A stretch of 64,000 nt of DNA from a virus (IMGVR_UViG_2595698618_000001:79136-143135), one strand, 5' to 3'; positions 48,789 through 62,979 are shown, numbered from the stretch's first letter. Program-made: numbers and translations. Notes: generated by a model not told the origin, from the letters alone.

Positions 48789-49236
48789 ACAGTATACTAC
48801 GCGGGCCAACTATAAAAAGGTTTCGCTTTACGTACCCATAACTTATGAGTGACAGAAGCCCGTAGCGGGTTCTGCCAGAACTATGTTAGTTCTGGTCGCT
48901 CGTCAGAGCCAGCCAAATTGCGAACAGGATGACGAACAGGACTATCACCTCTACCACGGCATCACCTTCTGGTAGAGCATTCGGAGAGCGAAACGAATTT
49001 GGGGAAGGCTATGCGGCGTTAATAGGACGAGTAGTTCACCTGTTGCTTGGAGTTCGTTCATACTCATACTACGGGAGTGCCAACCTTAAACCTTTCGCAT
49101 CTACTGCCTCGACCCATACCTTTAAGTAGTAGGTGGCTCCTCATGCGAAAATTGTAAAAAGAGTTACTCTTTTGGGAAATGCCGAATATCGACAGTCGGC
49201 GGATTGGCCTTCCACGCTCGTCGGAAACGTGCGACC

Positions 49237-49485
49237 TTAATTCGACAATACGCTACGAGCCTTTTCGACAGACGGGGCTTGCTTTCCTGCACGAATGAGA
49301 ACACCTCCGTTTAACTCCTGACTGATTTCCGACAGGGGCTTGACGTATTCGTGATAGCCGTCTTTGGTCTTTTCAGCGACACGAACCTCGCCGTTAGCCG
49401 AATCGCTGATTATAGCCATAGCGACGACACCTTCGCCGTTGCCTTTGACTCCCTTGAACACGTCGAGTTTCTGGAATCCTTCCAT
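49237..49485 (-). CDS. array gene: hypothetical protein
   Basis: ATG + promoter gaaacCCTTAAGTC 22 nt upstream. Confidence 0.5.
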   Translation of the reverse strand: MEGFQKLDVFKGVKGNGEGVVAMAIISDSANGEVRVAEKTKDGYHEYVKPLSEISQELNGGVLIRAGKQAPSVEKARSVLSN

Positions 49486-49542
49486 ACTCGTAGTAGGGTA
49501 GCGACTGACTTAAGGGTTTCGATGCATTGGCTAATCGGTACA

Positions 49543-49596
49543 CTTATATACTTAAGCACTCCCCGTGCCACGAGGAGTATACCACTATAAAAAGGA
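49543..49596. repeat. array repeat copy 1 (TATA-like + palindrome CTCCCCGTGcCACGAGGAG + TATACCACTATAAAAAGG)
   Basis: Direct reading. Confidence 0.8.
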
Positions 49597-49619
49597 TTCG
49601 GTCTTACTCCGAGGTGGCC

Positions 49620-50048
49620 TTACTGGAGGAGGCCAGCCGCTTCGTCCTGCATCTCGGTATCTTCGCTCTCCTCCTCGAAGTCTTCCTCGGTGGCTCCGGC
49701 GAGGGAGAAGGGAATCTCCTGCGGGAAGTCGTCGGGGTCGGCGTCACCGTCAACGCCGAGGGTGTCTCGACTGATGTAGAGTCCCGTGACTGCGCCGGAC
49801 TCGGTTTCGTAGACGCCGTAGTTGCCAGTACCCGAACCGCTGACTGACGCGAGGTGGAGGGTCCCGGTGGCGTTCTCGGAGTTGAGAACGATGTTGAGGA
49901 ACTCGGGGGCCTCCTCTCCGAATGCCTCTCCCACGATGTAGGAGGTGCAGATGGCCTGACCCGAGGCGAGGCTCGGACTGGCGAACTCGTGCTTACCGGC
50001 GCTGGTCGTCTTCTGGTGCTGAGTCGTGATGGTGGTGTTGTCTTCCAT
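49620..50048 (-). CDS. array gene: hypothetical protein (142 aa)
   Basis: ATG + promoter. Confidence 0.5.
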   Translation of the reverse strand: MEDNTTITTQHQKTTSAGKHEFASPSLASGQAICTSYIVGEAFGEEAPEFLNIVLNSENATGTLHLASVSGSGTGNYGVYETESGAVTGLYISRDTLGVDGDADPDDFPQEIPFSLAGATEEDFEEESEDTEMQDEAAGLLQ

Positions 50049-50090
50049 TGTATTTGTATTGAGGGTCGCTATGGTTATAAGGCTTTCGAC

Positions 50091-50333
50091 TTACCGCTTG
50101 AACAGGCTGGCGAGACTCGTGGAACGCTCTGCCGGAATGTGCGCGACGAGAGTATCACCGAGGCGACGAGTCGTGGCCGTCTCCTGATACCCGTTCACGC
50201 GCATCGTCCGAAAGAAGGAACCCGCGTCCTCCTCCGAAACGGTGACACGAATCCCGTTAGCGAGGTCCGAGTCCTGAAACTCTGCCGAGTCGATACCGCT
50301 GAACGCCTTGTGAACTTCGTCTGTAGTCACCAT
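50091..50333 (-). CDS. array gene: hypothetical protein
   Basis: ATG + promoter. Confidence 0.5.
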   Translation of the reverse strand: MVTTDEVHKAFSGIDSAEFQDSDLANGIRVTVSEEDAGSFFRTMRVNGYQETATTRRLGDTLVAHIPAERSTSLASLFKR

Positions 50334-50394
50334 TGCAATCTATAGTAGGGGAGTATCTGTATTAAGTCTTTCGTCTCATCGCTTGAGCAGTAGG

Positions 50395-50445
50395 TTTATA
50401 TACTAAAACACTACTCGTGCAAGACGAGTATACACCTATAAAAGA
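50395..50445. repeat. array repeat copy 2 (variant palindrome TACTCGTgcaagACGAGTA)
   Basis: Direct reading. Confidence 0.75.
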
Positions 50446-50468
50446 GTTGTGGCCTATTCCCGAACGGC

Positions 50469-51206
50469 TTAGTGGATATGGATAGCCACGTCGGGGCCTT
50501 CGGGGTTAATACAAAGGCGACACTCGCCGCATTGAATACGCTCGTCGGCGGGGACACCTTCGCTTTGCTGGATACTGTTAGGACACCATACGGCGGAGTC
50601 CGGCTTTTCGGCGGCTTCGGGAATAGCCATAAACCGGCGGTTCCCGTAGTCAGCGAGTCCGTTACTCGCGTTAACGGTGAAGTTTTCCGCTAAGTCCCAA
50701 TTGAGTTTATGACTCGCGGAGTACGTGTAAACGTCCACGTCAACTAATTCCGCGATTCTATTCACCTTAATTATGTCGGCGTTACTCCGAAAGTCACCCG
50801 CTTCGGAAAAGCGAATACTGTCGAACGGCTTACGCTTTCGGGAATTGAGACTGTTGAAAGCCTCGGCCCACATTTCAGCCGTCATACAATCCCAAAGGTA
50901 TTCCTGACGACGACGGTACGGGAGCGTTTGGGGATAGATGTTTTCGGCTTTAGCCGCGTAACACGACTCTTTGGGAACCTGACATAAGCCAGTCTCCGAC
51001 TCGCCCGACTCGGCGGTTCCGAAATTCGGACAGTCGTGTGCGCTATTCATATTGAAGATAGCGGTCGTGTTAGTTATCTTAGTGTTCCCCGACGTAATGT
51101 AGTCGCTAAGGATAAACGACCAGTCGCGGTTTGTTTCAGCGTCGGCCATCCGCGAACGAAGGTCGTCAATTCCCGATACGTCGTCTATGTCGTAGTCGTA
51201 GGCCAT
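50469..51206 (-). CDS. array gene: hypothetical protein with C-terminal CxxC
   Basis: Track start 51293 is GTG inside repeat; ATG 51206 has cgaaacACTTATA promoter 23 nt upstream. Confidence 0.5.
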   Translation of the reverse strand: MAYDYDIDDVSGIDDLRSRMADAETNRDWSFILSDYITSGNTKITNTTAIFNMNSAHDCPNFGTAESGESETGLCQVPKESCYAAKAENIYPQTLPYRRRQEYLWDCMTAEMWAEAFNSLNSRKRKPFDSIRFSEAGDFRSNADIIKVNRIAELVDVDVYTYSASHKLNWDLAENFTVNASNGLADYGNRRFMAIPEAAEKPDSAVWCPNSIQQSEGVPADERIQCGECRLCINPEGPDVAIHIH

Positions 51207-51264
51207 ACCCTTATTTGGAGAGGTAGGCATATAAGTGTTTCGTCTCGTCAGTCGAGGGGATAGG

Positions 51265-51318
51265 CTTAAGTACCAAAAGACTCCTCGTGCCACGAGGAGT
51301 ATACCACTATAAAAAGGT
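51265..51318. repeat. array repeat copy 3 (perfect palindrome)
   Basis: Direct reading. Confidence 0.8.
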
Positions 51319-51326
51319 TCCGGCGT

Positions 51327-51578
51327 TTAGACTTCTGCGCGTCGTGCGCCTTCGGCCTTGTGGAAGTAGTCGCTTGCCAGCACATCCTCGTCCCACACGA
51401 CGACGCGGAATTGTACCGAGCCGAGTTCGGCGTCCCACGCTTCGATAGTGTAATCTGCGCCGTGCTTCATATCCTTCCAGAGTAGGCCCTGTGCGACCAT
51501 ACGCGCCTCCCACACGTTTGAGACGGGCAGTTCTACTTCGTACATCACGTCGAACACAGTATGTGCGTCCATATTCAT
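51327..51578 (-). CDS. array gene: hypothetical protein
   Basis: ATG. Confidence 0.5.
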   Translation of the reverse strand: MNMDAHTVFDVMYEVELPVSNVWEARMVAQGLLWKDMKHGADYTIEAWDAELGSVQFRVVVWDEDVLASDYFHKAEGARRAEV

Positions 51579-51603
51579 TGATAGGGTCGGGGGTACTTAT
51601 ATG

Positions 51604-51939
51604 TTACGCTTCTGCCTGAACGTCGGGTCCGTGAATCTGGACAGTAGCGGCGTAGCCGAGATTGTTCTCAAGGCCGCAATGCCAGATAGTCTTGTCAACC
51701 GGGAACTCCGGGTCACTCGGACTCGAACGCAGACCTTCGACTCGGGACAGGACTACCTCCTCTCCGTTGAGGTCGAAGTGCCAGATAGTCGTCTCACGAA
51801 CTTCACCCGTTCGGGGGTCGGCGTTGTGTTTCTCAATATCCGAACACGTCATATTGAGCGTGTCACCTTCCGTCGTCTCGATAGTCACGTCGTCGCCTTC
51901 TGCGATATTCCGAACGTCGTCTGTATGGGATTCGTCCAT
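51604..51939 (-). CDS. array gene: acidic hypothetical protein
   Basis: ATG + promoter. Confidence 0.5.
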   Translation of the reverse strand: MDESHTDDVRNIAEGDDVTIETTEGDTLNMTCSDIEKHNADPRTGEVRETTIWHFDLNGEEVVLSRVEGLRSSPSDPEFPVDKTIWHCGLENNLGYAATVQIHGPDVQAEA

Positions 51940-51996
51940 ATCTTATCATAGTTGGATACACGTATAAGTCTTTCGGCTTTCGCACGAGTCCAAGGG

Positions 51997-52047
51997 TTTA
52001 TATACAATAACGCTCCTCGTGCATGACGAGTATACGGGTATAAAAGG
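51997..52047. repeat. array repeat copy 4 (variant palindrome CTCGTgcatgACGAG)
   Basis: Direct reading. Confidence 0.75.
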
Positions 52048-52285
52048 TTGGGGTCAGTAGTCGCTCAACTCGCTCTGCTCGCTTGGCGCAGGCGGGTCGA
52101 GGTAGTAGCGCGGATTATGCTCAGTCGGTTCGTTCTCCCCGAAGTCGTGTAGTATCATTCTCCTGAATTTCCTCCATCCCGAAGCCGTATTCTTCTACAT
52201 CACGAGCGCCAATCGCGGTCTTACGGTAGCGGTTGAGTTCCATTGCAATCTATTGTATGCTGGCTATTACCTTAAAGGTGTCGAT

Positions 52286-52651
52286 TCACCACGGGGGACT
52301 CGGCGCACCTCTCGGGGCAGGAGCCGTGTATCGCTCGATGAAACGGTCGCCGTCTTCCATTTCGAGCGAGGACGGGTCTATCTCGATAGTGTTCCCGTTC
52401 ATCCCCGAATATCGCTCGTAAGCGAATACGAGTTTCTTCGGGCAGTCTTCGGCGTCTCGCGTATCGCACCACGAGGACTTCGACACGACTTCGACTAACT
52501 CGCATACGTCGCCAATCTCGGTATCGAGATAGTCGTGGCCGACCTTCCAGTAGGTTCCGAATAGCCGAATACCGTTCGGGCGAGAGTCGTCACTCGGGGG
52601 AGTTGCGTGGCTGGCGTACTGGGTTCCGGTTCCGGGTTCTGCTCCGTGCAT
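52286..52651 (-). CDS. array gene: hypothetical protein
   Basis: ATG + promoter. Confidence 0.5.
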   Translation of the reverse strand: MHGAEPGTGTQYASHATPPSDDSRPNGIRLFGTYWKVGHDYLDTEIGDVCELVEVVSKSSWCDTRDAEDCPKKLVFAYERYSGMNGNTIEIDPSSLEMEDGDRFIERYTAPAPRGAPSPPW

Positions 52652-52698
52652 ACTCTCAGTAGGGGACCTGTTGACTTAAGGCTTTCGCTATCGGTGGG

Positions 52699-52750
52699 TT
52701 TATATACCTAAACGATACTCATGCCACGAGGAGTATACCACTATAAAAGG
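52699..52750. repeat. array repeat copy 5
   Basis: Direct reading. Confidence 0.75.
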
Positions 52751-52909
52751 TTCCGCCTGAAGGCTACCGGGAGTAGGGTCCGTCGTAGTCGTCGAAGGCG
52801 GCGGCCTTCACGAACTCGGGCGCACACTCGGGACAGACGTGGCTCATCTTAGTCGTGTCGAGGTCTGTCTCTCGAAGCGGTGTGTCACACTTCGGACAGG
52901 TTCGGTCGC

Positions 52910-53176
52910 TCACTTCGTCCACCCCTTTTCGCCGTGAACGTCGTCCATCGTCTCGATGACGCTACCGGGAAGGCGTGCGCGAGATTGGGTCCAGTTGTGA
53001 GTCGGTTCGGAAACGTCGCCACGAGTCTTTAGCGACCACTTGCCCGAATCCTCGAAACGCTGAAACTCGTAGATAGAGCCAGCGTCAGTCACGACTACGA
53101 ACAGTAGCCGGTCGGGGCCGAACGACTGTTGAATCGGGTCACGGAACTCGACGGCGTGAGTCACTTCTTGTGCCAT
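52910..53176 (-). CDS. array gene: hypothetical protein
   Basis: ATG + promoter. Confidence 0.5.
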   Translation of the reverse strand: MAQEVTHAVEFRDPIQQSFGPDRLLFVVVTDAGSIYEFQRFEDSGKWSLKTRGDVSEPTHNWTQSRARLPGSVIETMDDVHGEKGWTK

Positions 53177-53224
53177 ACCCTTACTACGGGTCCCCCTATA
53201 TTAAGTCTTGCGGAATCGGTGGCT

Positions 53225-53276
53225 TTATATACCATAAGTCTCCCCTTGCCACGAGGAGTATACGGGTATAAAAAGG
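53225..53276. repeat. array repeat copy 6
   Basis: Direct reading. Confidence 0.75.
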
Positions 53277-53313
53277 TTGCGGTTACTATGAGGCTCCCCG
53301 CCGCTTAAGGGCC

Positions 53314-53619
53314 TTAGCCCTCGTACTCGAAGGTCACGACGTTTGGCGAGTTGTAGTTGTCGGTTCGCACCATCCCGAAGCGTTCTGCCAACAGGTCGAG
53401 GGCTTCGGGGAGGTTCTGGTCGATACGCACTCTGTCACACGACACCATCACGTCTCCTTCGAGACTGTAGAACTGTGCCCGGAATCCGGGGAGCGAACCC
53501 ACCGCCTCGATGAAGCGGTTATCTGCCGCGTTCGGGAGAGCGTAGGGTCCGGTGTTCTCCGAGTTGAAGGAGTCCTTGTCGTACATCGCGTGCGTCAGTC
53601 GGGCATTGTCTCGTGCCAT
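53314..53619 (-). CDS. array gene: hypothetical protein
   Basis: ATG + promoter. Confidence 0.5.
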   Translation of the reverse strand: MARDNARLTHAMYDKDSFNSENTGPYALPNAADNRFIEAVGSLPGFRAQFYSLEGDVMVSCDRVRIDQNLPEALDLLAERFGMVRTDNYNSPNVVTFEYEG

Positions 53620-53678
53620 ACTACACAGTAGGGGAGGTTCACGTATAAGTCTTTCGTGTCATTGCCTACACCCCAAGC

Positions 53679-53731
53679 CTTAAGTACCAAAAGACTCCCC
53701 TTGCCACGAGGAGTAAATCACTATAAAAAGG
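53679..53731. repeat. array repeat copy 7
   Basis: Direct reading. Confidence 0.75.
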
Positions 53732-53753
53732 TTCCCATCCGCCTCGGCTTCCG

Positions 53754-54167
53754 CTACTCCGTGCGTCCCTTTGAGGTACGGTTGGGAATCATATTCTTGT
53801 GACCCAGTTCACGGAGACTCTCGGGAGGCGTACCCACAGTCGGGCGAGTGGACTTCATCTCGAAGTCGCGCCCGGATTCGAGGAGGTACTGGATGAGTTC
53901 TCGCGTGTGCCGACGAGTGGTTGCCTCACCGCCGCCGTGGTACTCCTCCTCGAAGCGGCGTTGCGCCCAGTCAGCCCATCCGCCGAAGACGCGAATCTCG
54001 CCCTCGGGAGACACGTCAGCGATTTTGCCCCAGTTGTACGCGAGGAGCGCGAACGTCCCGTCAGGCAGTTCCGTCAGGTTCAGACTGTTCCGGTGGTTGG
54101 AACCGGGGAACGTCCGGTTCTTGAAGGCGCGTCGAATCTCGTCGTTGGTGTACGTAATTTCACTCAT
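53754..54167 (-). CDS. array gene: hypothetical protein, paralog of 56853..57266
   Basis: Shared NRT.P.S..N...L.NG..ALL.Y.W..IA.V.P.G.I pattern. Confidence 0.55.
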   Translation of the reverse strand: MSEITYTNDEIRRAFKNRTFPGSNHRNSLNLTELPDGTFALLAYNWGKIADVSPEGEIRVFGGWADWAQRRFEEEYHGGGEATTRRHTRELIQYLLESGRDFEMKSTRPTVGTPPESLRELGHKNMIPNRTSKGRTE

Positions 54168-54392
54168 TGTCTGCGTTTGTGTTATGGTTAGGGTTTGTAT
54201 TAAGTCTTTCTACTCGCCGCGAATCTCTCGCTCCATCTCGACGTAATCCCGAAACTCCTCGGGAGCCTGCTGTTCGTCTTGAGCGATACGCTGGTACTGC
54301 TCCTCATCCTCAGTCTCTTGGGTTCTTCGTCCCATACACTACAGTAGGGGACACCCTATATTAAGCCTTTCGCCTCTCGTGCAATCGGTGGC

Positions 54393-54444
54393 TTTAAGTA
54401 CCATAACACTCCCCATGCACGAGGAGTATACCACTATAAAAAGA
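54393..54444. repeat. array repeat copy 8
   Basis: Direct reading. Confidence 0.75.
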
Positions 54445-54461
54445 TTCCGCCTGCCCCTTCC

Positions 54462-54785
54462 CTACTCCCAACGCTCAACCACAGGTCCGTCAGTAGGTCC
54501 GTGGTAGAAAGCGTAGGAGAACTCATCCTTGTGGTAGTGTCGGCATTGCGGATTGTTGCAGTAATACCCAACGTCGTCTCTTTCGACAGGGCTGACGTGC
54601 CAATGTCGGAGCATCGTCGGGTGTCCACACTTCGGACAGTCGTGTTCGACTATCTGAATACGCTGGCCGCTGTCTCCGAGTCCTCGAACGAACGACACGC
54701 TATCCTTCGCTGTGCTGATAACTTCTACCGAGCGGTCTTCCTCACCGTAGTACCCTTCAATCGCGGGAGTGGCGCTTCGTGCCAT
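54462..54785 (-). CDS. array gene: zinc-finger protein (CPKCGH...CNNPQC)
   Basis: ATG + promoter. Confidence 0.5.
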   Translation of the reverse strand: MARSATPAIEGYYGEEDRSVEVISTAKDSVSFVRGLGDSGQRIQIVEHDCPKCGHPTMLRHWHVSPVERDDVGYYCNNPQCRHYHKDEFSYAFYHGPTDGPVVERWE

Positions 54786-54834
54786 ACACCTACTTGGAGA
54801 CGTACTGTATTAAGTCTTCCGGTTAACCGAAGGC

Positions 54835-54887
54835 TTTATATACCTAAACGATACTCATGCCACGAGGAGCGTAAGGGTATAAAAAGG
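54835..54887. repeat. array repeat copy 9
   Basis: Direct reading. Confidence 0.75.
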
Positions 54888-55735: not shown

Positions 55736-55745
55736 CTCCGTTTAG

Positions 55746-55856: not shown

Positions 55857-55914
55857 ACACTCTACTACTCGCAACAGGGTAATAAGTCTTCCTACTTCGA
55901 GGCACACCAAAGGC

Positions 55915-55967
55915 TTTATATAGGTAAAGCCTCCCCGTGCCACGAGGAGTAAACCCCTATAAAAAGG
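55915..55967. repeat. array repeat copy 11
   Basis: Direct reading. Confidence 0.75.
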
Positions 55968-56032
55968 TGTCGGTTATCCTCCTGTGAGGGCGAGCCAAAT
56001 CGCAAAAAGTATCAGGAGGAATACAATTACCT

Positions 56033-56716
56033 CTACCACGCAACCTCCTTGAAGAATACCTTGTGGTCTGACGTGTCACCACGCTGATAGTCGAACAGCG
56101 CCCATTGGAACAGGAAGGAACTGCCGGTTTCTTCTACGAGGGTCGGGAAGTGCGACTTGATTTCATCGACAGCGGCCTCGTACTTTTCCACGACCACAGT
56201 AGTCGGGCGTTCCGTACCTGTAGCCTGCATTACATTAGTGTCGATACACATCTTTTCCGTAAACCCGAGCATCGCTAAGACGAACGGGGCTTTTGCAGGA
56301 CCAACACCCTTGAAATTATCAAGGACGAACTTGTGTGCCTTGTCTAATTCGTCCGACATTAGGAGATTAGCGACCTTCTCCCACTCGCGGCCAGACTGAA
56401 GCGAATCCATAATGTAATCCGCCTTATTCTTGTAGTAGTTGCACGACTTGATTGAATCCCGAATTTCCGAAACGGAAAGGGGAAGCCCATTAGCGAACAG
56501 GTTCCGAAACGCCTTTTCGTGAACGTTGACAGGTGTTTGAACTGACAGGACCGCCCAAGCGTGACTCTTTTGAAGCATTTCCACTTTGACCGACATATCA
56601 CTATTCTCGAATTTCTTGCGAGTGAATAGTAATTCGTTCCGAACCTTACGGTAGTGGGTACGGTTGCGGCGGAAGTGGTTCGTTGCGTGCAGGGCCGTTA
56701 TCGGGTCCATACCCAT
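56033..56716 (-). CDS. array gene: hypothetical protein (227 aa)
   Basis: ATG + promoter. Confidence 0.5.
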   Translation of the reverse strand: MGMDPITALHATNHFRRNRTHYRKVRNELLFTRKKFENSDMSVKVEMLQKSHAWAVLSVQTPVNVHEKAFRNLFANGLPLSVSEIRDSIKSCNYYKNKADYIMDSLQSGREWEKVANLLMSDELDKAHKFVLDNFKGVGPAKAPFVLAMLGFTEKMCIDTNVMQATGTERPTTVVVEKYEAAVDEIKSHFPTLVEETGSSFLFQWALFDYQRGDTSDHKVFFKEVAW

Positions 56717-56820: not shown

Positions 56821-56852
56821 ATGCCGGTGCGCCTTCGCGTTATTACCGGCTT

Positions 56853-57266: not shown

Positions 57267-57360
57267 AGTCGGATTTGTCGGAGGGCTTCTTTGTCCCTCC
57301 TTACTCTATCCAAAGAGAGGCATACGTATAAACCTGTCGCTTCTCTCGCCAGTCGGTAGT

Positions 57361-57413
57361 TTTATATACCATAATCCTCGCCATGTCACGAGGAGTAAAC
57401 CCCTATATAAAAG
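57361..57413. repeat. array repeat copy 13
   Basis: Direct reading. Confidence 0.75.
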
Positions 57414-57431
57414 TATCGCCCGCCGTCGCCT

Positions 57432-57899
57432 TCAGCCAGTCGGCGTCGTGCTTTTCGTAGCCGGGCACTTCTGGCACGAGTATTTCGTCGCTACCCGAGC
57501 GTTGTGCTTTTGGTGAGGATTCGTACACTTCCAGTCGTGCGAGTCACCGTCCGTACACGTCGCGTCACGGTTGGCACACTTGCCACACTTCACGCCAGCG
57601 AAGCCCGTGCTTACGTTGTTCTCGAACGGGAAGGTATCGCTACACTTCTTGCACACGAGTCGGTCTTCTGACACGAGCCACGACACGACTTTCTCAACTT
57701 CCGACACGTCCATCAGGTCAGACGGTCGAAACGCTTCGGGGACTATCTTCGGGTTCTCCTCGATTACGCTGAGATAAACCGCCTTACCGTCAATCCACGC
57801 ACCGGGTTCGGACGCACCCATACGTGAGTCGGGGCCACGGACTTGCTGGATAGTCACGTCTCGCCCGTTCGCTTCGTATTCTGCCTTGTAGTGAGGCAT
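57432..57899 (-). CDS. array gene: Cys-rich protein (multiple CxxC)
   Basis: ATG + promoter. Confidence 0.5.
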   Translation of the reverse strand: MPHYKAEYEANGRDVTIQQVRGPDSRMGASEPGAWIDGKAVYLSVIEENPKIVPEAFRPSDLMDVSEVEKVVSWLVSEDRLVCKKCSDTFPFENNVSTGFAGVKCGKCANRDATCTDGDSHDWKCTNPHQKHNARVATKYSCQKCPATKSTTPTG

Positions 57900-57957
57900 A
57901 CCCTACCTTGGGGCTATGGGTACTTAATCCTGTCGGTACGCTCGTGCGAGGGTAAGG

Positions 57958-58010
57958 TTTATATACCATAACGCTCGTCTTGCACGAGGAGTATACCACT
58001 ATAAAAAGGT
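57958..58010. repeat. array repeat copy 14
   Basis: Direct reading. Confidence 0.75.
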
Positions 58011-58030
58011 TTCGCCGCACCGCCCGCCCC

Positions 58031-58423
58031 TTACTTCAGGGGTTCGTAGTCGTAACGAGCCGCCCTTTCGTTCACCATCGTAGTGCAGTATTCTATGTCG
58101 TACTTCTCGATGGCCGCGCCAGCGTTGCGGATTTTTGCAGGACCGAACACTTCGAGGAGAAGCGGCGTGTTACTCCCGTCAGCGTGCAGGAATGCGTCGA
58201 ACAGGTAGCCCTTCCAGAGTTTCGTGAAGAAGCCGCCAGCCACCTCACACGGGTTCCGGCCTTCTTCGAGGACCGTACCACCGTATCCCGAATCGAGTTC
58301 CTGCCGAACGCTGTGCCGACCCTCAGCCGCCGACAGGTACACCGAGATGAACGCCTCACTCGCGCCAGCGTCTTTCAGGTCAGCCGTGCCAAACTTCCGC
58401 TCGTTGTTGGAGTGTTGCTCCAT
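58031..58423 (-). CDS. array gene: hypothetical protein
   Basis: ATG + promoter. Confidence 0.5.
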   Translation of the reverse strand: MEQHSNNERKFGTADLKDAGASEAFISVYLSAAEGRHSVRQELDSGYGGTVLEEGRNPCEVAGGFFTKLWKGYLFDAFLHADGSNTPLLLEVFGPAKIRNAGAAIEKYDIEYCTTMVNERAARYDYEPLK

Positions 58424-58480
58424 ACCCTTTCTTGGAGAGGTACTGTATTAAGCGTTTCGGTATGAAGCCGCGTCGAAGCC

Positions 58481-58532
58481 TTTAAGTACCATAACGCTCC
58501 TCGTGCCACGGGAAGTATACCACTATAAAAAG
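58481..58532. repeat. array repeat copy 15
   Basis: Direct reading. Confidence 0.75.
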
Positions 58533-58544
58533 ATTCCGGCTACC

Positions 58545-58811
58545 CTACCAAGGCTCAACCGTAGGGTCGCGTGTCATTTCATGCATCATTTGAGCCTGCC
58601 GGTCGCGTTCCATCTCACAGTACGGGCACTCGCCAGACGGGTACGGGCTTTTTCGCAGTTCATGAATCGTGCAACAAACGTCGGGGTCGTCGCTCGTGAA
58701 ACGCCCGCAGTCGGTGCAACGGTTCACGCCCTCGCCCGCAGGGTGTCCCTTGACGAAGCCGCAGGACTGGCAAAACGTCGCTACTTTGAGTCGGCCAAGT
58801 TCTCGGGCCAT
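58545..58811 (-). CDS. array gene: zinc-ribbon protein
   Basis: CQSCG...CTDCG...CPYC. Confidence 0.5.
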   Translation of the reverse strand: MARELGRLKVATFCQSCGFVKGHPAGEGVNRCTDCGRFTSDDPDVCCTIHELRKSPYPSGECPYCEMERDRQAQMMHEMTRDPTVEPW

Positions 58812-58868
58812 ACTCTGTATAGGGGTTAGGGGTACTTAAACCTGTCGCCATGAATCATGGTCGAAGGG

Positions 58869-58920
58869 TTTATATACTATAATACTCGTCGTGCCACGAG
58901 GAGTATACCACTATAAAAAG
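58869..58920. repeat. array repeat copy 16
   Basis: Direct reading. Confidence 0.75.
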
Positions 58921-58944
58921 GTTCCGCCCAAGCCACCGCTTGCT

Positions 58945-59190
58945 TTATCGGTCGTGCTTTGCCGCTTCTTTCACCGCCGCCTTTCGCGCCTTCGAGTGAG
59001 GCACGCCCTTCTTTTCCACGAGGCGGTTCGTGAGGCGCACGGCAAGGTCTTCTTGCCCTTCGGTGAGGCCAGCGTCGAACGAGGCGATGCGCGTGTGTCC
59101 GTCCCAATGGTCGGGCATCACTCCGGCCATACCCTCGTCCTGCTCGTTCGTGTAGGCTCTCATATCGAATCCGCTTTGGCTTTCTGCCAT
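58945..59190 (-). CDS. array gene: hypothetical protein
   Basis: ATG + promoter. Confidence 0.5.
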   Translation of the reverse strand: MAESQSGFDMRAYTNEQDEGMAGVMPDHWDGHTRIASFDAGLTEGQEDLAVRLTNRLVEKKGVPHSKARKAAVKEAAKHDR

Positions 59191-59247
59191 ACTCTATACT
59201 TATCGCATACCCACTTAAGTCTGTCGCTTCGAGGCGGCGTCGATACC

Positions 59248-59300
59248 TTTATATATCATAATACTCCTCGTGCCACGAGGAGTAAACCCATATAAAAAGG
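59248..59300. repeat. array repeat copy 17 (perfect 11-bp arms)
   Basis: Direct reading. Confidence 0.8.
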
Positions 59301-59314
59301 TTTCGCCCGCTCGC

Positions 59315-59752
59315 TTACCGGAGGTAACTGTATTCCTGTTCGCCCACTTCCGCGAGGTCGGGGTACTCTTTGGCGAGGGTACTCGCGTTGACGCTCACGA
59401 AGTCGTGGAAGTTGATGCCCTTCGCCACCGCACGCATCACCACAGACGTTTCATCTTCCGCGAGGTACTTCCGGTGGCTCTCGATGTGGCTGATTCCGAG
59501 GAGGCTCTCGCCCGGAGCCACACGCTCCTTGAGTTCGGCGTCGGCCACGTCTTTCCGCACAGACTCGCTCACTTTCTCCACGGCCTTGATAGCCTCACGG
59601 AGTCGGACGAGTTCGGTGTTCGTCATTGCCGCAACGTCCATCGCATCGAGCGAATCGAGTTCACTCTCGATTGCCCACAGGTTCGCCGTGGTGTCGCTGT
59701 TGTTCGTCGGCGTGGTGCTGGTTGACGCGATTGCGGCTTCGTTGTCTTCCAT
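59315..59752 (-). CDS. array gene: hypothetical protein
   Basis: Start trimmed to ATG (MEDNEA). Confidence 0.45.
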   Translation of the reverse strand: MEDNEAAIASTSTTPTNNSDTTANLWAIESELDSLDAMDVAAMTNTELVRLREAIKAVEKVSESVRKDVADAELKERVAPGESLLGISHIESHRKYLAEDETSVVMRAVAKGINFHDFVSVNASTLAKEYPDLAEVGEQEYSYLR

Positions 59753-59814
59753 TGCGTATGAACACAAGGGAGGTAGTGGTATAAGTCTTGTGGTGTGTTG
59801 TTACTACCACAACC

Positions 59815-59866
59815 TTTAAGTACCATAATCCTCCTCGTGCCATGCGGAGCATAACACTATATAAAA
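59815..59866. repeat. array repeat copy 18
   Basis: Direct reading. Confidence 0.75.
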
Positions 59867-60001
59867 GTACCGCCCGCCTACCTCAAAAGCCGCACTTGTG
59901 GCAGACGAGGACGTTCCCAACGCCTTCTCCCGCGTACATCGGTACGAGTTCCATCCGCTCCTCGCACCGCTCGCACCAGTCGTATTGAGTGAGCGTCGGC
60001 A

Positions 60002-60208
60002 TTATTCGATGAACAGAACGCCGCGTGCGTGCATCAGTTTATCCACCTGAACTGTCGCCTCGGGGAAGTGAATCTCCGAACCGTCGCCTAACGCGAGACG
60101 CTCGCCGTGGAAGTTGAGTGCGCCCGCGTCACCGATTGGCTCGCCCTCGTCCGAGTGCGCGACGTACTTGCCCGCTCGCTTCACGACCGAAGTGGCTTTG
60201 CTTGCCAT
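60002..60208 (-). CDS. array gene: hypothetical protein (~68 aa)
   Basis: Track start in repeat (GTG); internal ATG (MASKATS). Coordinates ±2 nt. Confidence 0.4.
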   Translation of the reverse strand: MASKATSVVKRAGKYVAHSDEGEPIGDAGALNFHGERLALGDGSEIHFPEATVQVDKLMHARGVLFIE

Positions 60209-60265
60209 ACCTTTGCTACGAGGGATAGGGTAATAAGTGTTTCGCCGTGTTGTTACTACCCGAAG

Positions 60266-60319
60266 GCTTAAGTAGGGTAATCCTCCTCGTGCCACGAGGA
60301 GTAAACCCCTATAAAAAGG
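60266..60319. repeat. array repeat copy 19 (perfect)
   Basis: Direct reading. Confidence 0.8.
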
Positions 60320-60328
60320 TTTCGCCCC

Positions 60329-60538
60329 TTACGCTTCTTCGCAGGGCGTGTAGGTGTCGCAAGTCGGGCACAATTCAGCCACGCCGCCGTACTCGCGTAG
60401 GGCGATGGCCTTGCCCCCGTAGGCTACGGGGAAGACGGTGTTACACTCTTGGCACTCAAGGGCGTGGGTCGCCCACAGGTCGGTGTCAGCGTCGAATCCC
60501 ACACGAGTCCTCTCGTCAGCAGTCTGGCTCTCTGCCAT
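60329..60538 (-). CDS. array gene: zinc-ribbon protein
   Basis: CQECN...CPTCD. Confidence 0.5.
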   Translation of the reverse strand: MAESQTADERTRVGFDADTDLWATHALECQECNTVFPVAYGGKAIALREYGGVAELCPTCDTYTPCEEA

Positions 60539-60597
60539 GATTCTACCTACGAGGGATAGGGTAATAAGTGTTTCGATGTTGGCTCATGAACGTAAGC

Positions 60598-60650
60598 CTT
60601 ATATACCATAACGCTCGTCGTGCCACGAGGAGTAATCCCCTATATAAACC
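60598..60650. repeat. array repeat copy 20
   Basis: Direct reading. Confidence 0.75.
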
Positions 60651-60698
60651 TTCCGCCTGCTTCTACTTCCGCAAAAAAGTGTCGCTTCTCTGAGGCTT

Positions 60699-60986
60699 CT
60701 ACTTCTCGACGTAGGCCACCTTGCCAATGTCGCTGTATCGCCCGAGGCCGTCGTGGTGTCCGTGGATGTACCCAATGTCGCTGTACCACGTATGGGTGTC
60801 CATTTCTGCCTGAAGGTTGCTCGTCGGCTTGAAGCACACGTCTCCGAAACTCGTGGAATCGACCGTCGCCTCGAAAGAGCGAACGCCGAGGTGTCCCGCC
60901 GCTCGGGAATTGACGTGAACGATAACCGTGTCGCCTGCTTCGAGGTCTTCCGCGCTAACACGTTCGAGGGTGGAGTTTTGCTCCAT
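60699..60986 (-). CDS. array gene: hypothetical protein
   Basis: ATG + promoter. Confidence 0.5.
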   Translation of the reverse strand: MEQNSTLERVSAEDLEAGDTVIVHVNSRAAGHLGVRSFEATVDSTSFGDVCFKPTSNLQAEMDTHTWYSDIGYIHGHHDGLGRYSDIGKVAYVEK

Positions 60987-61068
60987 ACTCTATACAGGAG
61001 GGGAGGGTATATAAGGTTGTCGCATCACATCTAATCTCATGAAATAAACCCTGCAAGTAAGGGTAACG

Positions 61069-61121
61069 CTTATATACCAAAAGACTCCTCATGCCACGAG
61101 GAGTAAACCCCTATATAAAAG
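61069..61121. repeat. array repeat copy 21
   Basis: Direct reading. Confidence 0.75.
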
Positions 61122-61145
61122 TTCCGCCTGACGCTCCGCCTCGCG

Positions 61146-61328
61146 CTATCGCACCACGCCGAGCCTTCGGTTCAGAGCGGGGCTTTCCAGACGCCGCTTC
61201 GCCGCCTCCGCCTCACGCTTGCTCTCGTGTCGCTCTAACACACGCTCCTCGACGCCGAAGGGCGTACTGGTGTGCGCGATTACCTTCCACTTGCCTTGCT
61301 CCGAGTTGATGGCCTTCTGTCGTGCCAT
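61146..61328 (-). CDS. array gene: basic small protein
   Basis: ATG + promoter. Confidence 0.45.
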   Translation of the reverse strand: MARQKAINSEQGKWKVIAHTSTPFGVEERVLERHESKREAEAAKRRLESPALNRRLGVVR

Positions 61329-61386
61329 ACTACTACTCTATCGGGTAAGGTAATAAGTCTTCTGGTGTGTTGTCGCTACCAATACC

Positions 61387-61440
61387 TTTAAGTAGGGTAA
61401 TCCTCCTCGTGCCACGAGGAGTAAACCCCTATATAAAAGT
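61387..61440. repeat. array repeat copy 22 (perfect)
   Basis: Direct reading. Confidence 0.8.
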
Positions 61441-61456
61441 TCCGCCCGAGTTTCCT

Positions 61457-61717
61457 TCAGCGTTTCGCGGGCTTGAAGTAAGCCACCTCGTCGTCAATCC
61501 CGTCAGCCCACCACGCTGTACCCTCCTCGAAGTCGTCGCACTCCGCTTGTGCCGCTTCCTTCGAGTGGAAGGCTTCGGTTCGGTAGAGTTCGTTCCCGTC
61601 CTCGTCAAACGCCGCGAGTTCCCACGGGGGAGCGTCCTGTTGCTCTAACCGCCGCATCTCTCGCATATGCTTGCGTTCCGAGGCCATCGACGCCATTCCG
61701 TCAGGGGTTCGTCCCAT
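61457..61717 (-). CDS. array gene: hypothetical protein
   Basis: ATG + promoter. Confidence 0.5.
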   Translation of the reverse strand: MGRTPDGMASMASERKHMREMRRLEQQDAPPWELAAFDEDGNELYRTEAFHSKEAAQAECDDFEEGTAWWADGIDDEVAYFKPAKR

Positions 61718-61776
61718 ACCTCTACCAAGGGTAGCTATCGTATTAAGTGTTTCGGTTCGCTCGCACGAGGGGAAGG

Positions 61777-61826
61777 TTTATATACCATAACACTACTCGT
61801 GCAAGGCGAGTAAACCCCTATAAAAA
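61777..61826. repeat. array repeat copy 23 (variant palindrome TACTCGtgcaaggCGAGTA, same type as copy 2)
   Basis: Direct reading. Confidence 0.75.
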
Positions 61827-61852
61827 CATTGCGCCTTCCGCAAGTTTCGCTC

Positions 61853-62104
61853 CTACTGCGAGCCGCGCACCATCCTCCGGCCAGTCTCAACCTTGCCCTT
61901 ATCTTCCACGTCGAAGCCCGCATCATACAAGTCCGTCAGGAGGTTGACGTAATCCTTCGCGTCACGGGCCGCCTCGATGAACACCGTCACGTCAGTCGTC
62001 AGACCACTACTGCCAACGTTAACCTCCATTGACACTTGGCTGACGTTCTCGTAATCCATCTTGATTTGCTGGACGGCCTTGCGCGGGTTGGTTGCTTCAA
62101 CCAT
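61853..62104 (-). CDS. array gene: hypothetical protein
   Basis: ATG + promoter. Confidence 0.5.
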   Translation of the reverse strand: MVEATNPRKAVQQIKMDYENVSQVSMEVNVGSSGLTTDVTVFIEAARDAKDYVNLLTDLYDAGFDVEDKGKVETGRRMVRGSQ

Positions 62105-62160
62105 ACTCTTACTCTATTTGCCAAGGGTATAAGTCTTCCGGTATCAAACGCCGTCGAAGC

Positions 62161-62212
62161 CTTTATGTATCATAACACTCCTCGTGCCACGGGGAGCAAA
62201 CCCCTATATAAA
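62161..62212. repeat. array repeat copy 24
   Basis: Direct reading. Confidence 0.75.
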
Positions 62213-62226
62213 TCCTGCGGCCAGCC

Positions 62227-62289
62227 CTAACTCGTCAGAGCCAGCCAAGCCGCAAATATCAGCAGGATTACAAGTCCTTCAACTATCAT
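62227..62289 (-). CDS. hydrophobic micro-ORF (MIVEGLVILLIFAAWLALTS), one of three conserved copies
   Basis: TAAATG junction after 62290..62562; similar peptides at ~48896..48965 and ~55985..56045. Confidence 0.35.
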   Translation of the reverse strand: MIVEGLVILLIFAAWLALTS

Positions 62290-62562
62290 TTACTCCACGA
62301 TTTCGTAACCCATTTTCTCCATCCGGTACTTCGCGTGGTCGCGCTTCTCCTCCTCGAATTTTGAGGCGATTCCCGCGAGTTCGCCCGAGGTGAAGTGGTC
62401 CACCTCCTGCCAGTCACGCGCCGCGTCGTAGACGTTGAACGAGTAGCCGCCGTACCAGACACACGCGAGGCCGTCGTCGTTGAATCCGATGAGTTTCGCG
62501 CCGTCCGTCGCTCGGGTAACTTTCTGCGCCATACCGCTTCTGGTTGCGTTGACTCCAACCAT
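62290..62562 (-). CDS. array gene: hypothetical protein
   Basis: ATG + promoter ggaaggTTTATACC 23 nt upstream. Confidence 0.5.
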   Translation of the reverse strand: MVGVNATRSGMAQKVTRATDGAKLIGFNDDGLACVWYGGYSFNVYDAARDWQEVDHFTSGELAGIASKFEEEKRDHAKYRMEKMGYEIVE

Positions 62563-62619
62563 ACTATACCATTATCGCGTTAGGGTATAAACCTTCCGGT
62601 TCGTCGCCCCGCCGGTAAC

Positions 62620-62672
62620 TTTATATACCATAATACTCCTCGTGCCACGGGGAGCAAACACCTATATAAAAG
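62620..62672. repeat. array repeat copy 25
   Basis: Direct reading. Confidence 0.75.
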
Positions 62673-62979
62673 CACCGCAAAGCCGCCCGCCTTTCTTACA
62701 GGCAGGCCGCGATAAATCCAATCAGGCCGATTCCCCACAACACCGCACCAAACAGGGCAACTTTCACTTGAGGTGTCATTTAGATGATGTGTCGCAGGGG
62801 GTTCTTGTGTTCGCAGGGGAAACCGCCGTCCACCTCAGTCTTGTTACCGCACGGACAAATTGGGTGTCCAAATTGGTCTTGGGTGAAGCCTTCGGGTAGG
62901 AGTTCGCTTGGTATCTCCATACTCTGTATAGTATCGGGGGTATATTAAGCCTTTCGGTTCGCTCGTCCGAGGGAAACGC

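Follow-up and report, generated by a model that had tools for sequence, protein, structure and literature searches.

Unannotated genes for hydrophobic micro-proteins of about 20 amino acids lie directly behind ordinary genes in Halogranum tailed virus 1 and its relatives

Bacteria and phages encode hydrophobic membrane proteins shorter than 50 amino acids, including KdpF, AcrZ, MgtS, CydX and the type-I toxins of the Ibs/TisB type, of which the Ibs-type toxins, with 18-19 aa, are the smallest known from bacteria. An isolated transmembrane helix can also act through specific contacts between helices, by which it binds a membrane protein of the host, as is the case for the papillomavirus E5 protein and for artificial 'traptamer' proteins. 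A comparable genomic setting is provided by the promoter-early stem-loop (PeSL) cassettes of T4-type phages (PMC2839356, PMC4122927), and an intergenic motif of Halogranum tailed virus 1 (HGTV-1) has been described and compared with PeSLs (PMC3950731, citing Sencilo 2013); the available secondary descriptions of the HGTV-1 repeat make no mention of micro-ORFs. Coupling of termination and re-initiation at overlapping or very closely spaced genes is established in the haloarchaeon Haloferax volcanii (PMC6728339, PMC10666635).

The window analysed here, a stretch of 64,000 nucleotides, belongs to HGTV-1, an archaeal virus with a genome of 143,855 bp, and while the PeSL-like repeat of this virus was already known, the finding reported here is the micro-ORFs found next to it. 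In HGTV-1 and its uncultured relatives, between one and three genes, all unannotated, encode peptides of about 20 aa and are located directly behind ordinary genes. In HGTV-1, three minus-strand micro-ORFs (m1, m2 and m3) are real protein-coding genes of one hydrophobic peptide family, and a fourth (m4) represents a second, unrelated family (Table 1); all four are missing from the GenBank annotation. The first-pass annotation had proposed these micro-ORFs and their peptides, and all four are present with the sequences it gave. Its position for m3 was exact, whereas small shifts were needed for m1 (from about 48896..48965 to a GTG at 48957 and a stop at 48886), m2 (from about 55985..56045 to a GTG at 56039, ending at 55974) and m4 (from about 62700..62783 to an ATG at 62779, ending at 62696). 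In m1, m2 and m3 alike, the start codon is the earliest possible start of the open frame. A hidden Markov model (HMM) built from these three peptides recovers exactly these three loci from the whole HGTV-1 genome (E 2e-14 to 2e-11), the next-best match having an E of 0.38, and a comparable hydrophobicity is reached by only 23 of the 1691 small ORFs of the genome. The Kyte-Doolittle maximum over 15 residues is 2.6-3.3 for the HGTV-1 copies, and the peptide is almost wholly one hydrophobic helix with a length just sufficient to cross a bilayer.

Table 1. Micro-ORFs of HGTV-1 with their upstream cistrons and adjacent elements (positions within the window).
Feature	Position	Strand	Remarks
m1	48886..48957	-	GTG start, 23 aa, MVEVIVLFVILFAIWLALTSDQN; slot C, end of minus-strand cassette array
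Shine-Dalgarno-like AGGTGAT	48961..48967	-	3 nt upstream of m1 start
Gene 275	48951..49067	-	36-38 aa, upstream cistron of m1; own BRE/TATA, leaderless-type start
Two adjacent hairpins	48853..48895	-	after m1; degenerate repeat module, no standard box A
m2	55974..56039	-	GTG start, 21 aa, MVEVIVFLLILFAIWLALTGG; slot A, behind Ogg/endonuclease-III-like gene
Shine-Dalgarno-like AGGAGGT	56043..56049	-	3 nt upstream of m2 start
Gene 294	56033..56716	-	annotated endonuclease III (Ogg-HhH/HhH-GPD-like), upstream cistron of m2
PeSL-like repeat copy	55909..55976	-	after m2; begins 8 nt past m2 stop
m3	62227..62289	-	ATG start, 20 aa, MIVEGLVILLIFAAWLALTS; slot B, behind gene 309
Gene 309	62290..62562	-	90 aa, upstream cistron of m3
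PeSL-like repeat copy	62156..62223	-	downstream of m3
m4	62696..62779	-	ATG start, 27 aa, MTPQVKVALFGAVLWGIGLIGFIAACL; unrelated to m1-m3
Gene 311	62780..62920	-	46 aa, CxC...C zinc-finger-like, upstream cistron of m4
PeSL-like repeat copy	62614..62681	-	downstream of m4; GenBank gene 310 drawn across

Selection on the encoded peptide is evident from the comparison of m1 with m2, which differ at 18 of 60 bases, yet at just 4 of 20 residues, all of them conservatively. Five of the 20 codons are identical, 11 differ synonymously and four carry conservative replacements, so that pS is 0.87 and pN 0.11 when the start codon is excluded. The differences number 4, 0 and 14 at the first, second and third codon positions, and this excess at the third position (14/18, P about 4e-4) cannot by itself separate the two strands, because the antisense frame that shares the wobble position is open in all 13 family sequences. 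This openness could be cited in favor of the micro-ORFs being chance open frames within a duplicated nucleotide element, or of the true gene lying on the opposite strand, but either is highly improbable: nothing more than the reverse reading of NTN codons as NAN keeps the antisense frame open, it lacks a start codon in 3/13 sequences and varies in length (10 to 106 aa), and between m1 and m2 it is conserved at 12/19 residues with non-conservative changes, against 16/20 in the sense frame. Moreover, nucleotide similarity ends at the borders of the ORFs, and the relatives retain the start, stop and length of the sense frame.

These relatives were found via the neighbouring Ogg/endonuclease-III-like gene, which has metagenomic homologs; the comparative set is small, with 13 distinct peptides from metagenomic contigs. 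With GC contents of 33-52%, the contigs carry hydrophobic ORFs of 20 codons in the same three genomic slots. Behind homologs of the slot A gene that are 88% down to 55% identical (GC from 0.52 to 0.33), L041, L040, L034/35, L042, L043, L044/L057, L045 and L046 carry an ORF of 19-21 codons with its start at a distance of 0 to 7 nt from the stop of that gene, and counterparts in slots B and C are found in L034, L044 and L036. The slot B counterpart of m3 (L034 5225-5287, MIEIALIITLIVFALSVLLT) lies behind a gene-309 homolog with an identical TAAATG junction, and those of m1 in slot C are L044 7861-7923 and L036 11796-11858, the former of which was recovered by an HMM of 11 members although it was outside the training set (E 1.3e-4). 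The peptides are 19-23 aa long and exactly 20 aa in 10/13, with Glu or Gly at position 3 in 10 of the 13 and Gly or Ala at position 17 in 11, and 12 of them contain neither Lys nor Arg. The L044 and L057 peptides are identical, their genes having one synonymous change, and m2 shares 10/19 residues with its L041 relative; beyond hydrophobicity, length and a few positions, constraint between viruses is weak. The slot A copy has decayed in L036-L039 and is absent behind the Ogg-like gene in L048-L056, a clade at about 50% identity, and hence it is dispensable at least at this slot. The proposed lack of relationship between m4 and the other three holds, and m4 is itself conserved: its ortholog (L034 4747-4830) has the equal length of 84 nt without indels and 18/27 identical amino acids (tblastn 66.7%), the codon changes amounting by reading to about seven synonymous and nine conservative ones. 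The view that conserved single-helix peptides of about 20 aa had been overlooked by annotation is therefore borne out; conservation of nucleotides only, which had been named as the outcome that would speak against it, is not what was found, as the amino acid sequence is conserved both between paralogs and in related genomes.

The micro-ORFs lie on the strand of the upstream gene and start at or near its stop codon, as translationally coupled cistrons do. The starts of m1-m4 and of all relatives in slots A and B are offset by -7, -4 or 0 nt relative to the stop of the gene in front, unlike those of the slot C copies of L044 and L036, each of which comes with its own promoter-like sequence. Both m1 and m2 overlap the stop of the preceding gene (275 and 294, respectively) as GTGGTAG, and m3 and m4 abut genes 309 and 311 as TAAATG, in agreement with the initial description of starts placed directly at a gene stop. 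The Shine-Dalgarno motifs of m1 and m2 are independent 7-nt matches, both ending 3 nt before the GTG within non-homologous upstream sequence; about 0.3% of random positions show such a match. That of m1 agrees with AGGAGGTGATCC at all 7 nt and also precedes HGTV-1 structural genes, while that of m2 is kept in L041 and L040 (AAGGAGGTcgcGTG); no convincing motif was found before m3 or m4. Matches of at least 6 nt precede 13% of HGTV-1 internal genes vs. 1.6% of random positions. We infer that the micro-ORFs are co-transcribed and translationally coupled with the upstream genes, such that ribosomes ending the upstream gene would re-initiate at the overlapping or abutting start (GTGGTAG, GTGA, TAAATG, TGATTG or TAAGTG), possibly aided in some copies by the Shine-Dalgarno motif. 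The same junctions could be taken to mean that the helices, rather than being separate products, serve the upstream proteins as C-terminal membrane anchors, to which they would be joined by programmed frameshifting or read-through of the stop codon, since m3 and m4 continue the frame of the upstream gene straight past its TAA, and m1 and m2 overlap the stop in the -1 frame. Such an origin is hardly credible, as homologous peptides would require three different recoding mechanisms (a -1 shift, read-through and the -4/0 offsets in relatives), a slippery heptamer is absent at CCGTGGTAG and GCGTGGTAG, every copy begins with a start codon of its own in a conserved position, one member is encoded separately behind a promoter of its own, and the upstream proteins are mutually unrelated.

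The setting of the micro-ORFs is an array in which a TATA-like box and an inverted repeat precede most ORFs, as in PeSL arrays. The repeat consists of a T-run with a TATA-like box A, a stem-loop and an inverted TATA-like box B, and its 68-nt unit occurs in at least 21 in-register copies according to a repeat finder and as 26 hairpin cores in a scan. In every case the micro-ORF is the final ORF ahead of a T-run or PeSL-like repeat, its end lying 8-27 nt before a T-run or stem-loop, and the distance from gene stop to repeat is 11-39 nt at ordinary cassettes vs. 67-108 nt at micro-ORF sites. A repeat copy had been noted behind each micro-ORF, which is correct for m2, m3 and m4, whose ends precede it by 10-27 nt, whereas m1 is followed by a degenerate copy with a different pair of hairpins (-24.9 kcal/mol, z -4.15), the first of which includes the final codons of m1 together with its stop. 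The micro-ORF would be the 3'-most cistron on a short mRNA, transcribed from the preceding cassette gene's leaderless-type promoter and ending at the T-run/stem-loop of the next repeat. For the next gene, a separate BRE/TATA lies about 25 nt before a leaderless-type ATG, and L044 7861-7923 has a TATA box to itself and only a convergent gene behind it. A role as leader peptides, which had also been suggested, or as attenuators is disfavored, as are recoding and an antisense gene. Leader-peptide ORFs are located in the 5' leader of the gene they regulate and share its transcript, on which alternative RNA structures form; the ORFs of HGTV-1 follow a gene and lie at the 3' end of the transcription unit, the T-run/stem-loop and the promoter of the next gene intervene, and in L044 only the convergent gene follows. 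It is also very unlikely that the act of translation matters rather than the peptide, in that ribosomes near the T-run/stem-loop would tune termination or read-through into the next cassette, or protect the 3' end of the mRNA. The spacing of the ORF ends from these elements and the stable hairpin at the end of m1 would fit such a role, but the amino acid sequence is held through saturated synonymous change, the ORFs stay hydrophobic and 20 codons long over the range of 33% to 52% GC, the next gene has a separate promoter, the micro-ORF of L044 has a TATA box to itself and precedes only a convergent gene, and 19 of the 26 cassettes have no such ORF.

On the basis of these sequence features, the micro-ORFs are best explained, and probably so, as translationally coupled genes whose micro-proteins span the bilayer and act in the membrane of the host. 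Because a 20-residue peptide stays in the ribosome tunnel until release, insertion into the host membrane would follow translation, and as it has no soluble domain, the peptide would have to act inside the membrane. Its most likely mode of action, a reasoned guess, would be to pack against the transmembrane segments of a membrane protein, be it of the host or of the virus, or against its own copies. No feature points to a particular target; the fast divergence between viruses together with the near-identical paralogs in HGTV-1 may be read as tuning to a host-specific membrane target. Unlikely, although it equally accepts the genes as real, is that the peptides damage the membrane, as helices like those of type-I toxins, viroporins or minimal holins that depolarize or permeabilize the host for shut-off or timing of lysis, with several copies raising the dose. 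With 20-23 aa and one helix, the m1-m3 peptides fall within the type-I toxin range (about 18-60 aa, one transmembrane helix) and resemble the smallest bacterial members in size and hydrophobicity, several copies are present per genome, and the small residues found close to the C-terminal end (Gly/Ala and Ser/Thr) could help helices to pack against one another. Against damage speaks that searches of Pfam, NCBIfam and PHROGs at E up to 10 matched no toxin family such as Ibs, Ldr, Hok, TisB, ShoB or Fst, and no holin family, the sole exception being a composition-level match to phrog_29988 (E 0.028); m4 scored 14.5 bits against small_MgtS, below the cut-off of 35, and no Rfam family matches. Furthermore, there is no charged tail and almost no polar residue to line a pore, and no antisense promoter specific to the micro-ORFs was seen: TATA-like elements within or particular to them are lacking, and the inverted box B that faces them is found at 26/26 repeat copies, with or without a micro-ORF. 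Holins combine at least one transmembrane domain with a C-terminal domain that is charged and hydrophilic, and are usually 60-150 aa long. The earlier comparison with holins does not fit peptides of 19-23 aa with 0-4 residues past the helix, no charged C-terminal domain and, in 12/13, no Lys or Arg, whose neighbors are the Ogg/endonuclease-III-like gene and small proteins, with no lysis gene annotated or recognized nearby.

As putative membrane-acting micro-proteins, the HGTV-1 peptides share with KdpF, AcrZ, MgtS, CydX and the Ibs/TisB toxins that they consist of one transmembrane helix and little more, that annotation routinely misses them and that they are often encoded as a second cistron behind a larger gene, and the members of this group act in the membrane on proteins or on the bilayer. 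They differ in having no sequence relationship to any of these, in being shorter than nearly all of them, in lacking flanking basic residues, and in their origin from an archaeal virus, where one to three copies of the gene occupy fixed slots in the genome. The micro-ORFs resemble haloarchaeal coupled gene pairs in the short offsets of their starts from the stop in front (-7, -4 or 0 nt) and in the Shine-Dalgarno motif that some of them have, but such pairs often encode subunits of one complex, whereas the same peptide family stands behind three unrelated upstream genes, so that the peptide is unlikely to be a fixed partner of the upstream protein. As in the PeSL cassettes of T4-type phages, they are found in an array of single-gene cassettes separated by composite promoter/terminator-like stem-loops; in contrast, they lie upstream of the repeat, within the preceding transcription unit, and the repeat is their setting only. 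The likeness to E5 and the traptamers, which are also essentially one transmembrane helix, may be drawn as a purely mechanistic analogy, E5 being 44 aa long, dimeric and eukaryotic.

Four unannotated micro-ORFs lie on the minus strand of Halogranum tailed virus 1 (HGTV-1, KC292026.1), a haloarchaeal myovirus of 143,855 bp of which the window covers bases 79136-143135 (window coordinate = record coordinate - 79135), namely m1, m2 and m3, which encode one family of hydrophobic peptides, and the unrelated m4. Direct reading and six-frame translation recover all four, which the first-pass annotation had recognized with coordinates that were 4-10 nt off for m1, m2 and m4. The GenBank entry contains none of them. 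The starts of m1 and m2 lie inside the sequence GTGGTAG, in which TAG is the stop codon of gene 275 and gene 294, respectively, while m3 and m4 begin immediately behind the TAA that ends gene 309 and gene 311, respectively (TAAATG). In none of the four does the open frame contain a possible start codon ahead of the one used.

A hidden Markov model (HMM) of m1-m3 run against the complete genome returned exactly these three (E 2e-14 to 2e-11; next match E 0.38). m1 and m2 are 70% identical in DNA (42/60) and 80% in peptide; their 20 aligned codons comprise 5 identical, 11 synonymous and 4 conservatively changed ones (L/F, F/L, V/L, S/G), and the 18 nucleotide differences are distributed over the three codon positions as 4, 0 and 14 (probability ~4e-4), with pS 0.87 and pN 0.11 (Nei-Gojobori, start codon excluded). 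The nucleotide similarity extends from the start codon to approximately codon 20 and is confined to the ORF, hence the conserved unit is the ORF rather than a wider repeat, and a pure nucleotide repeat can be rejected. Stops are also lacking in the antisense frame whose wobble positions coincide with those of the sense frame; the reason is composition, as NTN codons become NAN in reverse. An antisense gene was rejected, since its start codon is missing in 3 of the 13 family members, its length varies from 10 to 106 aa, and its conservation (12/19, with non-conservative changes) is below that of the sense frame, which is open in 13/13. A frameshift or read-through fusion to the upstream protein was likewise rejected. 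The four micro-ORFs are real ORFs, with purifying selection acting on the peptide.

AGGTGAT stands before m1 and AGGAGGT before m2, each agreeing over 7 nt with the haloarchaeal Shine-Dalgarno consensus AGGAGGTGATCC without a mismatch and each ending 3 nt short of the GTG. Of random positions in the HGTV-1 genome, 0.3% show such agreement, and the two motifs are independent, because they lie in the non-homologous coding sequence of unrelated upstream genes. The Shine-Dalgarno motif is clearly in use by HGTV-1; the gene for the major capsid protein and further structural genes are preceded by GAGGTGAT and AGGTGAT, and a match of at least 6 nt is found at 13% of annotated internal genes compared with 1.6% of random positions. 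Upstream of m3 there is GGAG only, and upstream of m4 no Shine-Dalgarno sequence.

The surrounding region is a minus-strand array of single-gene cassettes with a repeat between them (26 copies in the gap table). Read on the minus strand, the module consists of the stop codon, an 11-39-nt spacer, cGAAAC-CTTTTTATAG (box A, with a T-run), the stem-loop ACTCCTCGTGGCACGAGGAGT, GGTATATAAAG (box B, an inverted TATA-like box), a spacer of ~25 nt, the BRE/TATA-like CGAAAGaCTTAAtAC, a spacer of ~22 nt and ATG. In a review, the group that sequenced the virus reported that most ORFs in this part of HGTV-1 are preceded by a conserved motif comprising a TATA-like box and an inverted repeat, and likened this motif to the PeSL promoter/terminator cassettes of T4-type phages (PMC3950731; for PeSL cassettes, PMC2839356, PMC4122927). 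The PeSL-like repeat is thus already known, and what is new is that which precedes some of its copies: the gap from stop codon to box A is 11-39 nt at 19/26 copies and 67, 77 and 108 nt at m2, m3 and m4, respectively, while m1 is followed by a degenerate module that has two stable hairpins. The repeat core CTCGTGCCACGAGGAGTA has zero matches in IMG/VR. In all repeat copies of the array, box A looks on the gene strand like both a full BRE+TATA promoter and a T-run terminator, and box B is a TATA-like box in the opposite direction, so that the module could fire both ways, which bears on any antisense RNA hypothesis.

Relatives of the micro-ORFs were reached only via gene 294, the neighbouring Ogg-like gene annotated as endonuclease III. 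The HGTV-1 peptides found no relatives in a phage collection (tblastn), in IMG/VR (peptide alignment) or, searched as peptides or motif, in JGI metagenome contigs and GTDB genomes; a degenerate DNA pattern gave 29 matches in IMG/VR, all of them chance matches inside longer unrelated ORFs, a tandem m1+m2 query gave no candidate in a large protein database, and an HMM built solely from HGTV-1 missed the divergent relatives. These searches were empty because the motif FA[IA]WLALT is specific to HGTV-1, and not because relatives are absent. Gene 294 is Ogg-HhH-like at a sub-threshold 24.9 bits and has 74 homologs in a large protein collection, several of them 65-88% identical, the contigs of which were examined (loci L034-L057). 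A relationship to the other annotated endonuclease III (gene 212) was considered and rejected, and no relative of the Ogg-like gene occurs in GTDB genomes.

Coordinates of the micro-ORFs, their relatives and other features (window coordinates unless a locus or the record is named; slot A, behind gene 294; slot B, behind gene 309; slot C, array end)
Feature	Position	Strand	Sequence	Junction or remark
m1	GTG 48957 to stop 48886	-	MVEVIVLFVILFAIWLALTSDQN	
m2	GTG 56039 to 55974	-	MVEVIVFLLILFAIWLALTGG	
m3	ATG 62289 to 62227	-	MIVEGLVILLIFAAWLALTS	
m4	ATG 62779 to 62696	-	MTPQVKVALFGAVLWGIGLIGFIAACL	
Slot A, L041			MVEVILALILLFILWLGLSS	GTGGTAG, Shine-Dalgarno kept
Slot A, L040			MVEAILALILLFI...	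peptide cut by contig end
Slot A, L034/L035			MIGAALIITVLITSTLLVLQ	GTGA overlap
Slot A, L042			MIGIIIILLVLFAAWLGLQ	GTGA overlap
Slot A, L043			MVGYAFVIVIIVMIIIGLFC	TGATTG
Slot A, L044 and L057			MIGYILIIWILIILFIGTFL	TAATTG; one synonymous change between the two
Slot A, L045			MLAYAIILLIFIIMFVGLLI	TAAGTG
Slot A, L046			MIGYIIACGIIIMIIIGLLI	TAAGTG
Slot A remnant	L036 5973-6062 (also L037, L038)		TTGATAGGATAC... (MIGY...)	~30-nt deletion, frame enters repeat
Slot B, L034	5225-5287		MIEIALIITLIVFALSVLLT	behind gene-309 homolog, TAAATG as in m3
Slot C, L044	7861-7923		MIEYLLAILLIVMITTGTLC	m1 counterpart, own promoter-like sequence
Slot C, L036	11796-11858		MIVKLCIAVILILLFIGTFF	m1 counterpart, own promoter-like sequence
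m4 ortholog, L034	4747-4830		MTPQVKVTIFACILWAIGLLGFMAAAL	84 nt like m4, no indels, 18/27 residues identical (tblastn 66.7%)
16-codon ORF	L051 604-654; L052 549-599		MLFTAILLILLIAIFL	abuts upstream TAA, then T7 run
14-codon ORF	L003 19922-19966 (HGTV-1 record 69922-69966)	-	MIGYILVRGVSNEC	overlaps stop of 15-codon ORF as GTGA
18-codon ORF	55467-55523	-	MKFWLWLSQIAYPSDEKE	overlaps gene 292 stop as ATGA
93-aa ORF	48507-48788	-	MQVYDAILGIVGLSLIGTAVAISLIGATGIAVVAVVGIPAIAIGLFVV...	CGAAACCTTTTTATAG ~27 nt before ATG
Gene 274	48668-48841	+		TTG start
44-aa ORF	30348-30482	+	MSRGIAVGHLTGGLIILCGILLGGSPLALAVGVVTGGIIGLILG	ATGA overlap at start, 1-nt overlap at end
Gap after gene 313	63029-63251			222 nt
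8-nt tandem unit	especially 63053-63119	-	CATTTCGG	~5 copies and further ATTTCG repeats
Box A	copies in 48800-64000, e.g. 55956-55976		cGAAAC-CTTTTTATAG	
Repeat-translation calls	50469-51293, 60002-60295, 60543-60626, 62580-62738, 62945-63148; 64282-64500 (L001 17783-18001)			last one beyond window end

Amino-acid conservation in related genomes, on which the first-pass annotation had made its reading depend, is indeed found, as peptides of the family occupy slots A, B and C in relatives. The slot A lineages range from 88% to 55% identity of the upstream protein, with contig GC from 0.52 down to 0.33, and the L042 peptide bridges two sequence styles, having the MIG... N-terminus and ...FAAWLGL near its C-terminus. 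Slot C faces a convergent gene-273 homolog, and its L044 copy was found by an HMM of 11 members from which it had been left out (E 1.3e-4); no more members turned up in the loci examined when the scan was widened to all possible start codons. In total the family comprises 13 distinct peptides, 10 of them exactly 20 residues long, with Met at position 1, Ile, Val or Leu at position 2, Glu/Gly at position 3 (10/13), Gly/Ala at position 17 (11/13) and hydrophobic residues throughout between positions 3 and 17; Lys and Arg are wholly absent from 12/13. m4 has an ortholog in one relative, from which it differs by ~7 synonymous codons and ~9 conservative replacements (alignment read by eye), and it bears no relationship to other small hydrophobic HGTV-1 ORFs. 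None of the micro-ORFs matches Pfam, PHROGs, NCBIfam, PDB sequences or Rfam. Position, start and length of the micro-ORF are conserved across related viruses, and in every case no further ORF lies between it and the following T-run or stem-loop.

Losses are seen as well. In L036-L039 the slot A copy is a truncated remnant, and the decayed slot A of L036 represents a naturally occurring loss-of-function allele in a lineage whose slot C copy is retained. The slot A copy is absent from the ~50%-identity clade (L048-L056), where a T-run directly follows the stop codon, the gene-311 homologs of L036, L047 and L042 have no m4 behind them, and no micro-ORF lies behind the distant Ogg-like homolog of HATV-2 (33% identical). 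In L051 and L052, whose Ogg-like gene is ~49% identical, the slot A peptide is missing and a different hydrophobic ORF of 16 codons is present; cassette-end micro-ORFs may be a wider habit of the HGTV-1-like virus group. Outside the window, HGTV-1 carries a 14-codon ORF with a MIGYIL start like that of the L044-type peptides, which could be a family relic or a chance match.

Several other gene calls nearby are missing or doubtful. GenBank genes 279, 302, 304, 310, 312 and 314 start with or consist of translated intergenic repeat (VARGxxWYI.., ..RRNTY..), gene 310 also overlapping m4; they look like mis-started or spurious calls, and their true starts seem to lie at the ATG that follows the BRE/TATA-like element by ~25 nt. 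The unusually long gap after gene 313, over which gene 312 is drawn, holds a tandem array that could be a protein-binding site. The stop-to-repeat gap behind gene 292 is also oversized (63 nt) and holds an 18-codon ORF that is not a transmembrane helix. An unannotated 93-aa ORF with two predicted hydrophobic helices and a promoter-like sequence has no family matches; it is antisense to gene 274, whose product is arginine-rich and which is probably spurious. Further away, a hydrophobic ORF of 44 aa, missing from the annotation, occupies exactly the space between genes 224 and 225, and its overlaps suggest that it is probably another missed membrane micro-protein.

Judging from established haloarchaeal biology, the BRE/TATA of the upstream cassette gene would give rise to a leaderless mRNA, with transcription running through the micro-ORF and presumably ending at the oligo-T of box A. 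A ribosome terminating on the upstream gene could then re-initiate at the overlapping or abutting start; in Haloferax volcanii, termination-reinitiation was shown to operate where genes overlap or lie very close together (PMC6728339, PMC10666635). A 20-residue helix would span ~30 Å, i.e., one bilayer thickness. Being too short to leave the ribosome before release, the peptide should insert after translation, and as it has no soluble part, it would be expected to act only within the membrane, most likely through helix-helix contacts, either with a membrane protein or among its own copies.

m1 and m2 encode near-identical peptides despite saturated synonymous sites, which suggests that the HGTV-1 copies are kept alike by selection and not by recent gene conversion. 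m2 and its L041 ortholog have 10/19 residues in common, whereas the Ogg-like gene of the two viruses is 85% identical (pS 0.53, pN 0.10). That copies are held alike within HGTV-1 while the family drifts or adapts between viruses is, given the very few sequences, a lead and not a result. A more speculative and rather unlikely extension regards the 20-residue helices as host-specific transmembrane 'keys'. Selection, not gene conversion, would keep the copies of each virus matched, either to the transmembrane segment in a single membrane protein of the host or to one another, forming a minimal homo-oligomeric pore. If so, no smaller effector protein would be known from an archaeal virus, and the helices would help to determine host takeover or the range of hosts.

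Most HGTV-1 genes are without known function, and the genome is, to our knowledge, the largest of any described archaeal virus. Its annotation gains at least four real genes, probably more, and the cassette array proves to contain bicistronic units. We know of no gene caller whose threshold does not lie above 20-residue proteins, and of no conserved 20-residue protein family described for archaeal viruses; the new micro-protein family and the one further micro-protein in HGTV-1-like viruses are real. A 2026 paper on HGTV-1 and its host does not deal with promoters, small ORFs or transmembrane proteins. Synthesis and mutation of the peptides are simple, and virus and host were recently developed into a laboratory system (PMC13532342). 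Should the peptides target membrane proteins of the host, virus-host interaction in haloarchaea could be approached through them in a very simple way, and they would help to define the minimum sequence of a functional transmembrane protein.

The main rival to helix-helix interaction is a role as membrane-damaging toxin or viroporin. The HGTV-1 peptides are alike in size to the smallest type-I toxins, one of the likenesses proposed in the first-pass annotation, but have the sequence features of no described family, and no antitoxin RNA is evident. Its two other suggestions do not fit, as the peptides are too short and lack the charged tail for holin-like proteins, and lie at the wrong end of the transcription unit for leader peptides. 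The repeat array around the micro-ORFs corresponds to the PeSL-like motif already described. In their way of working, the peptides would be akin to the small membrane proteins with a single helix known from bacteria and phages.
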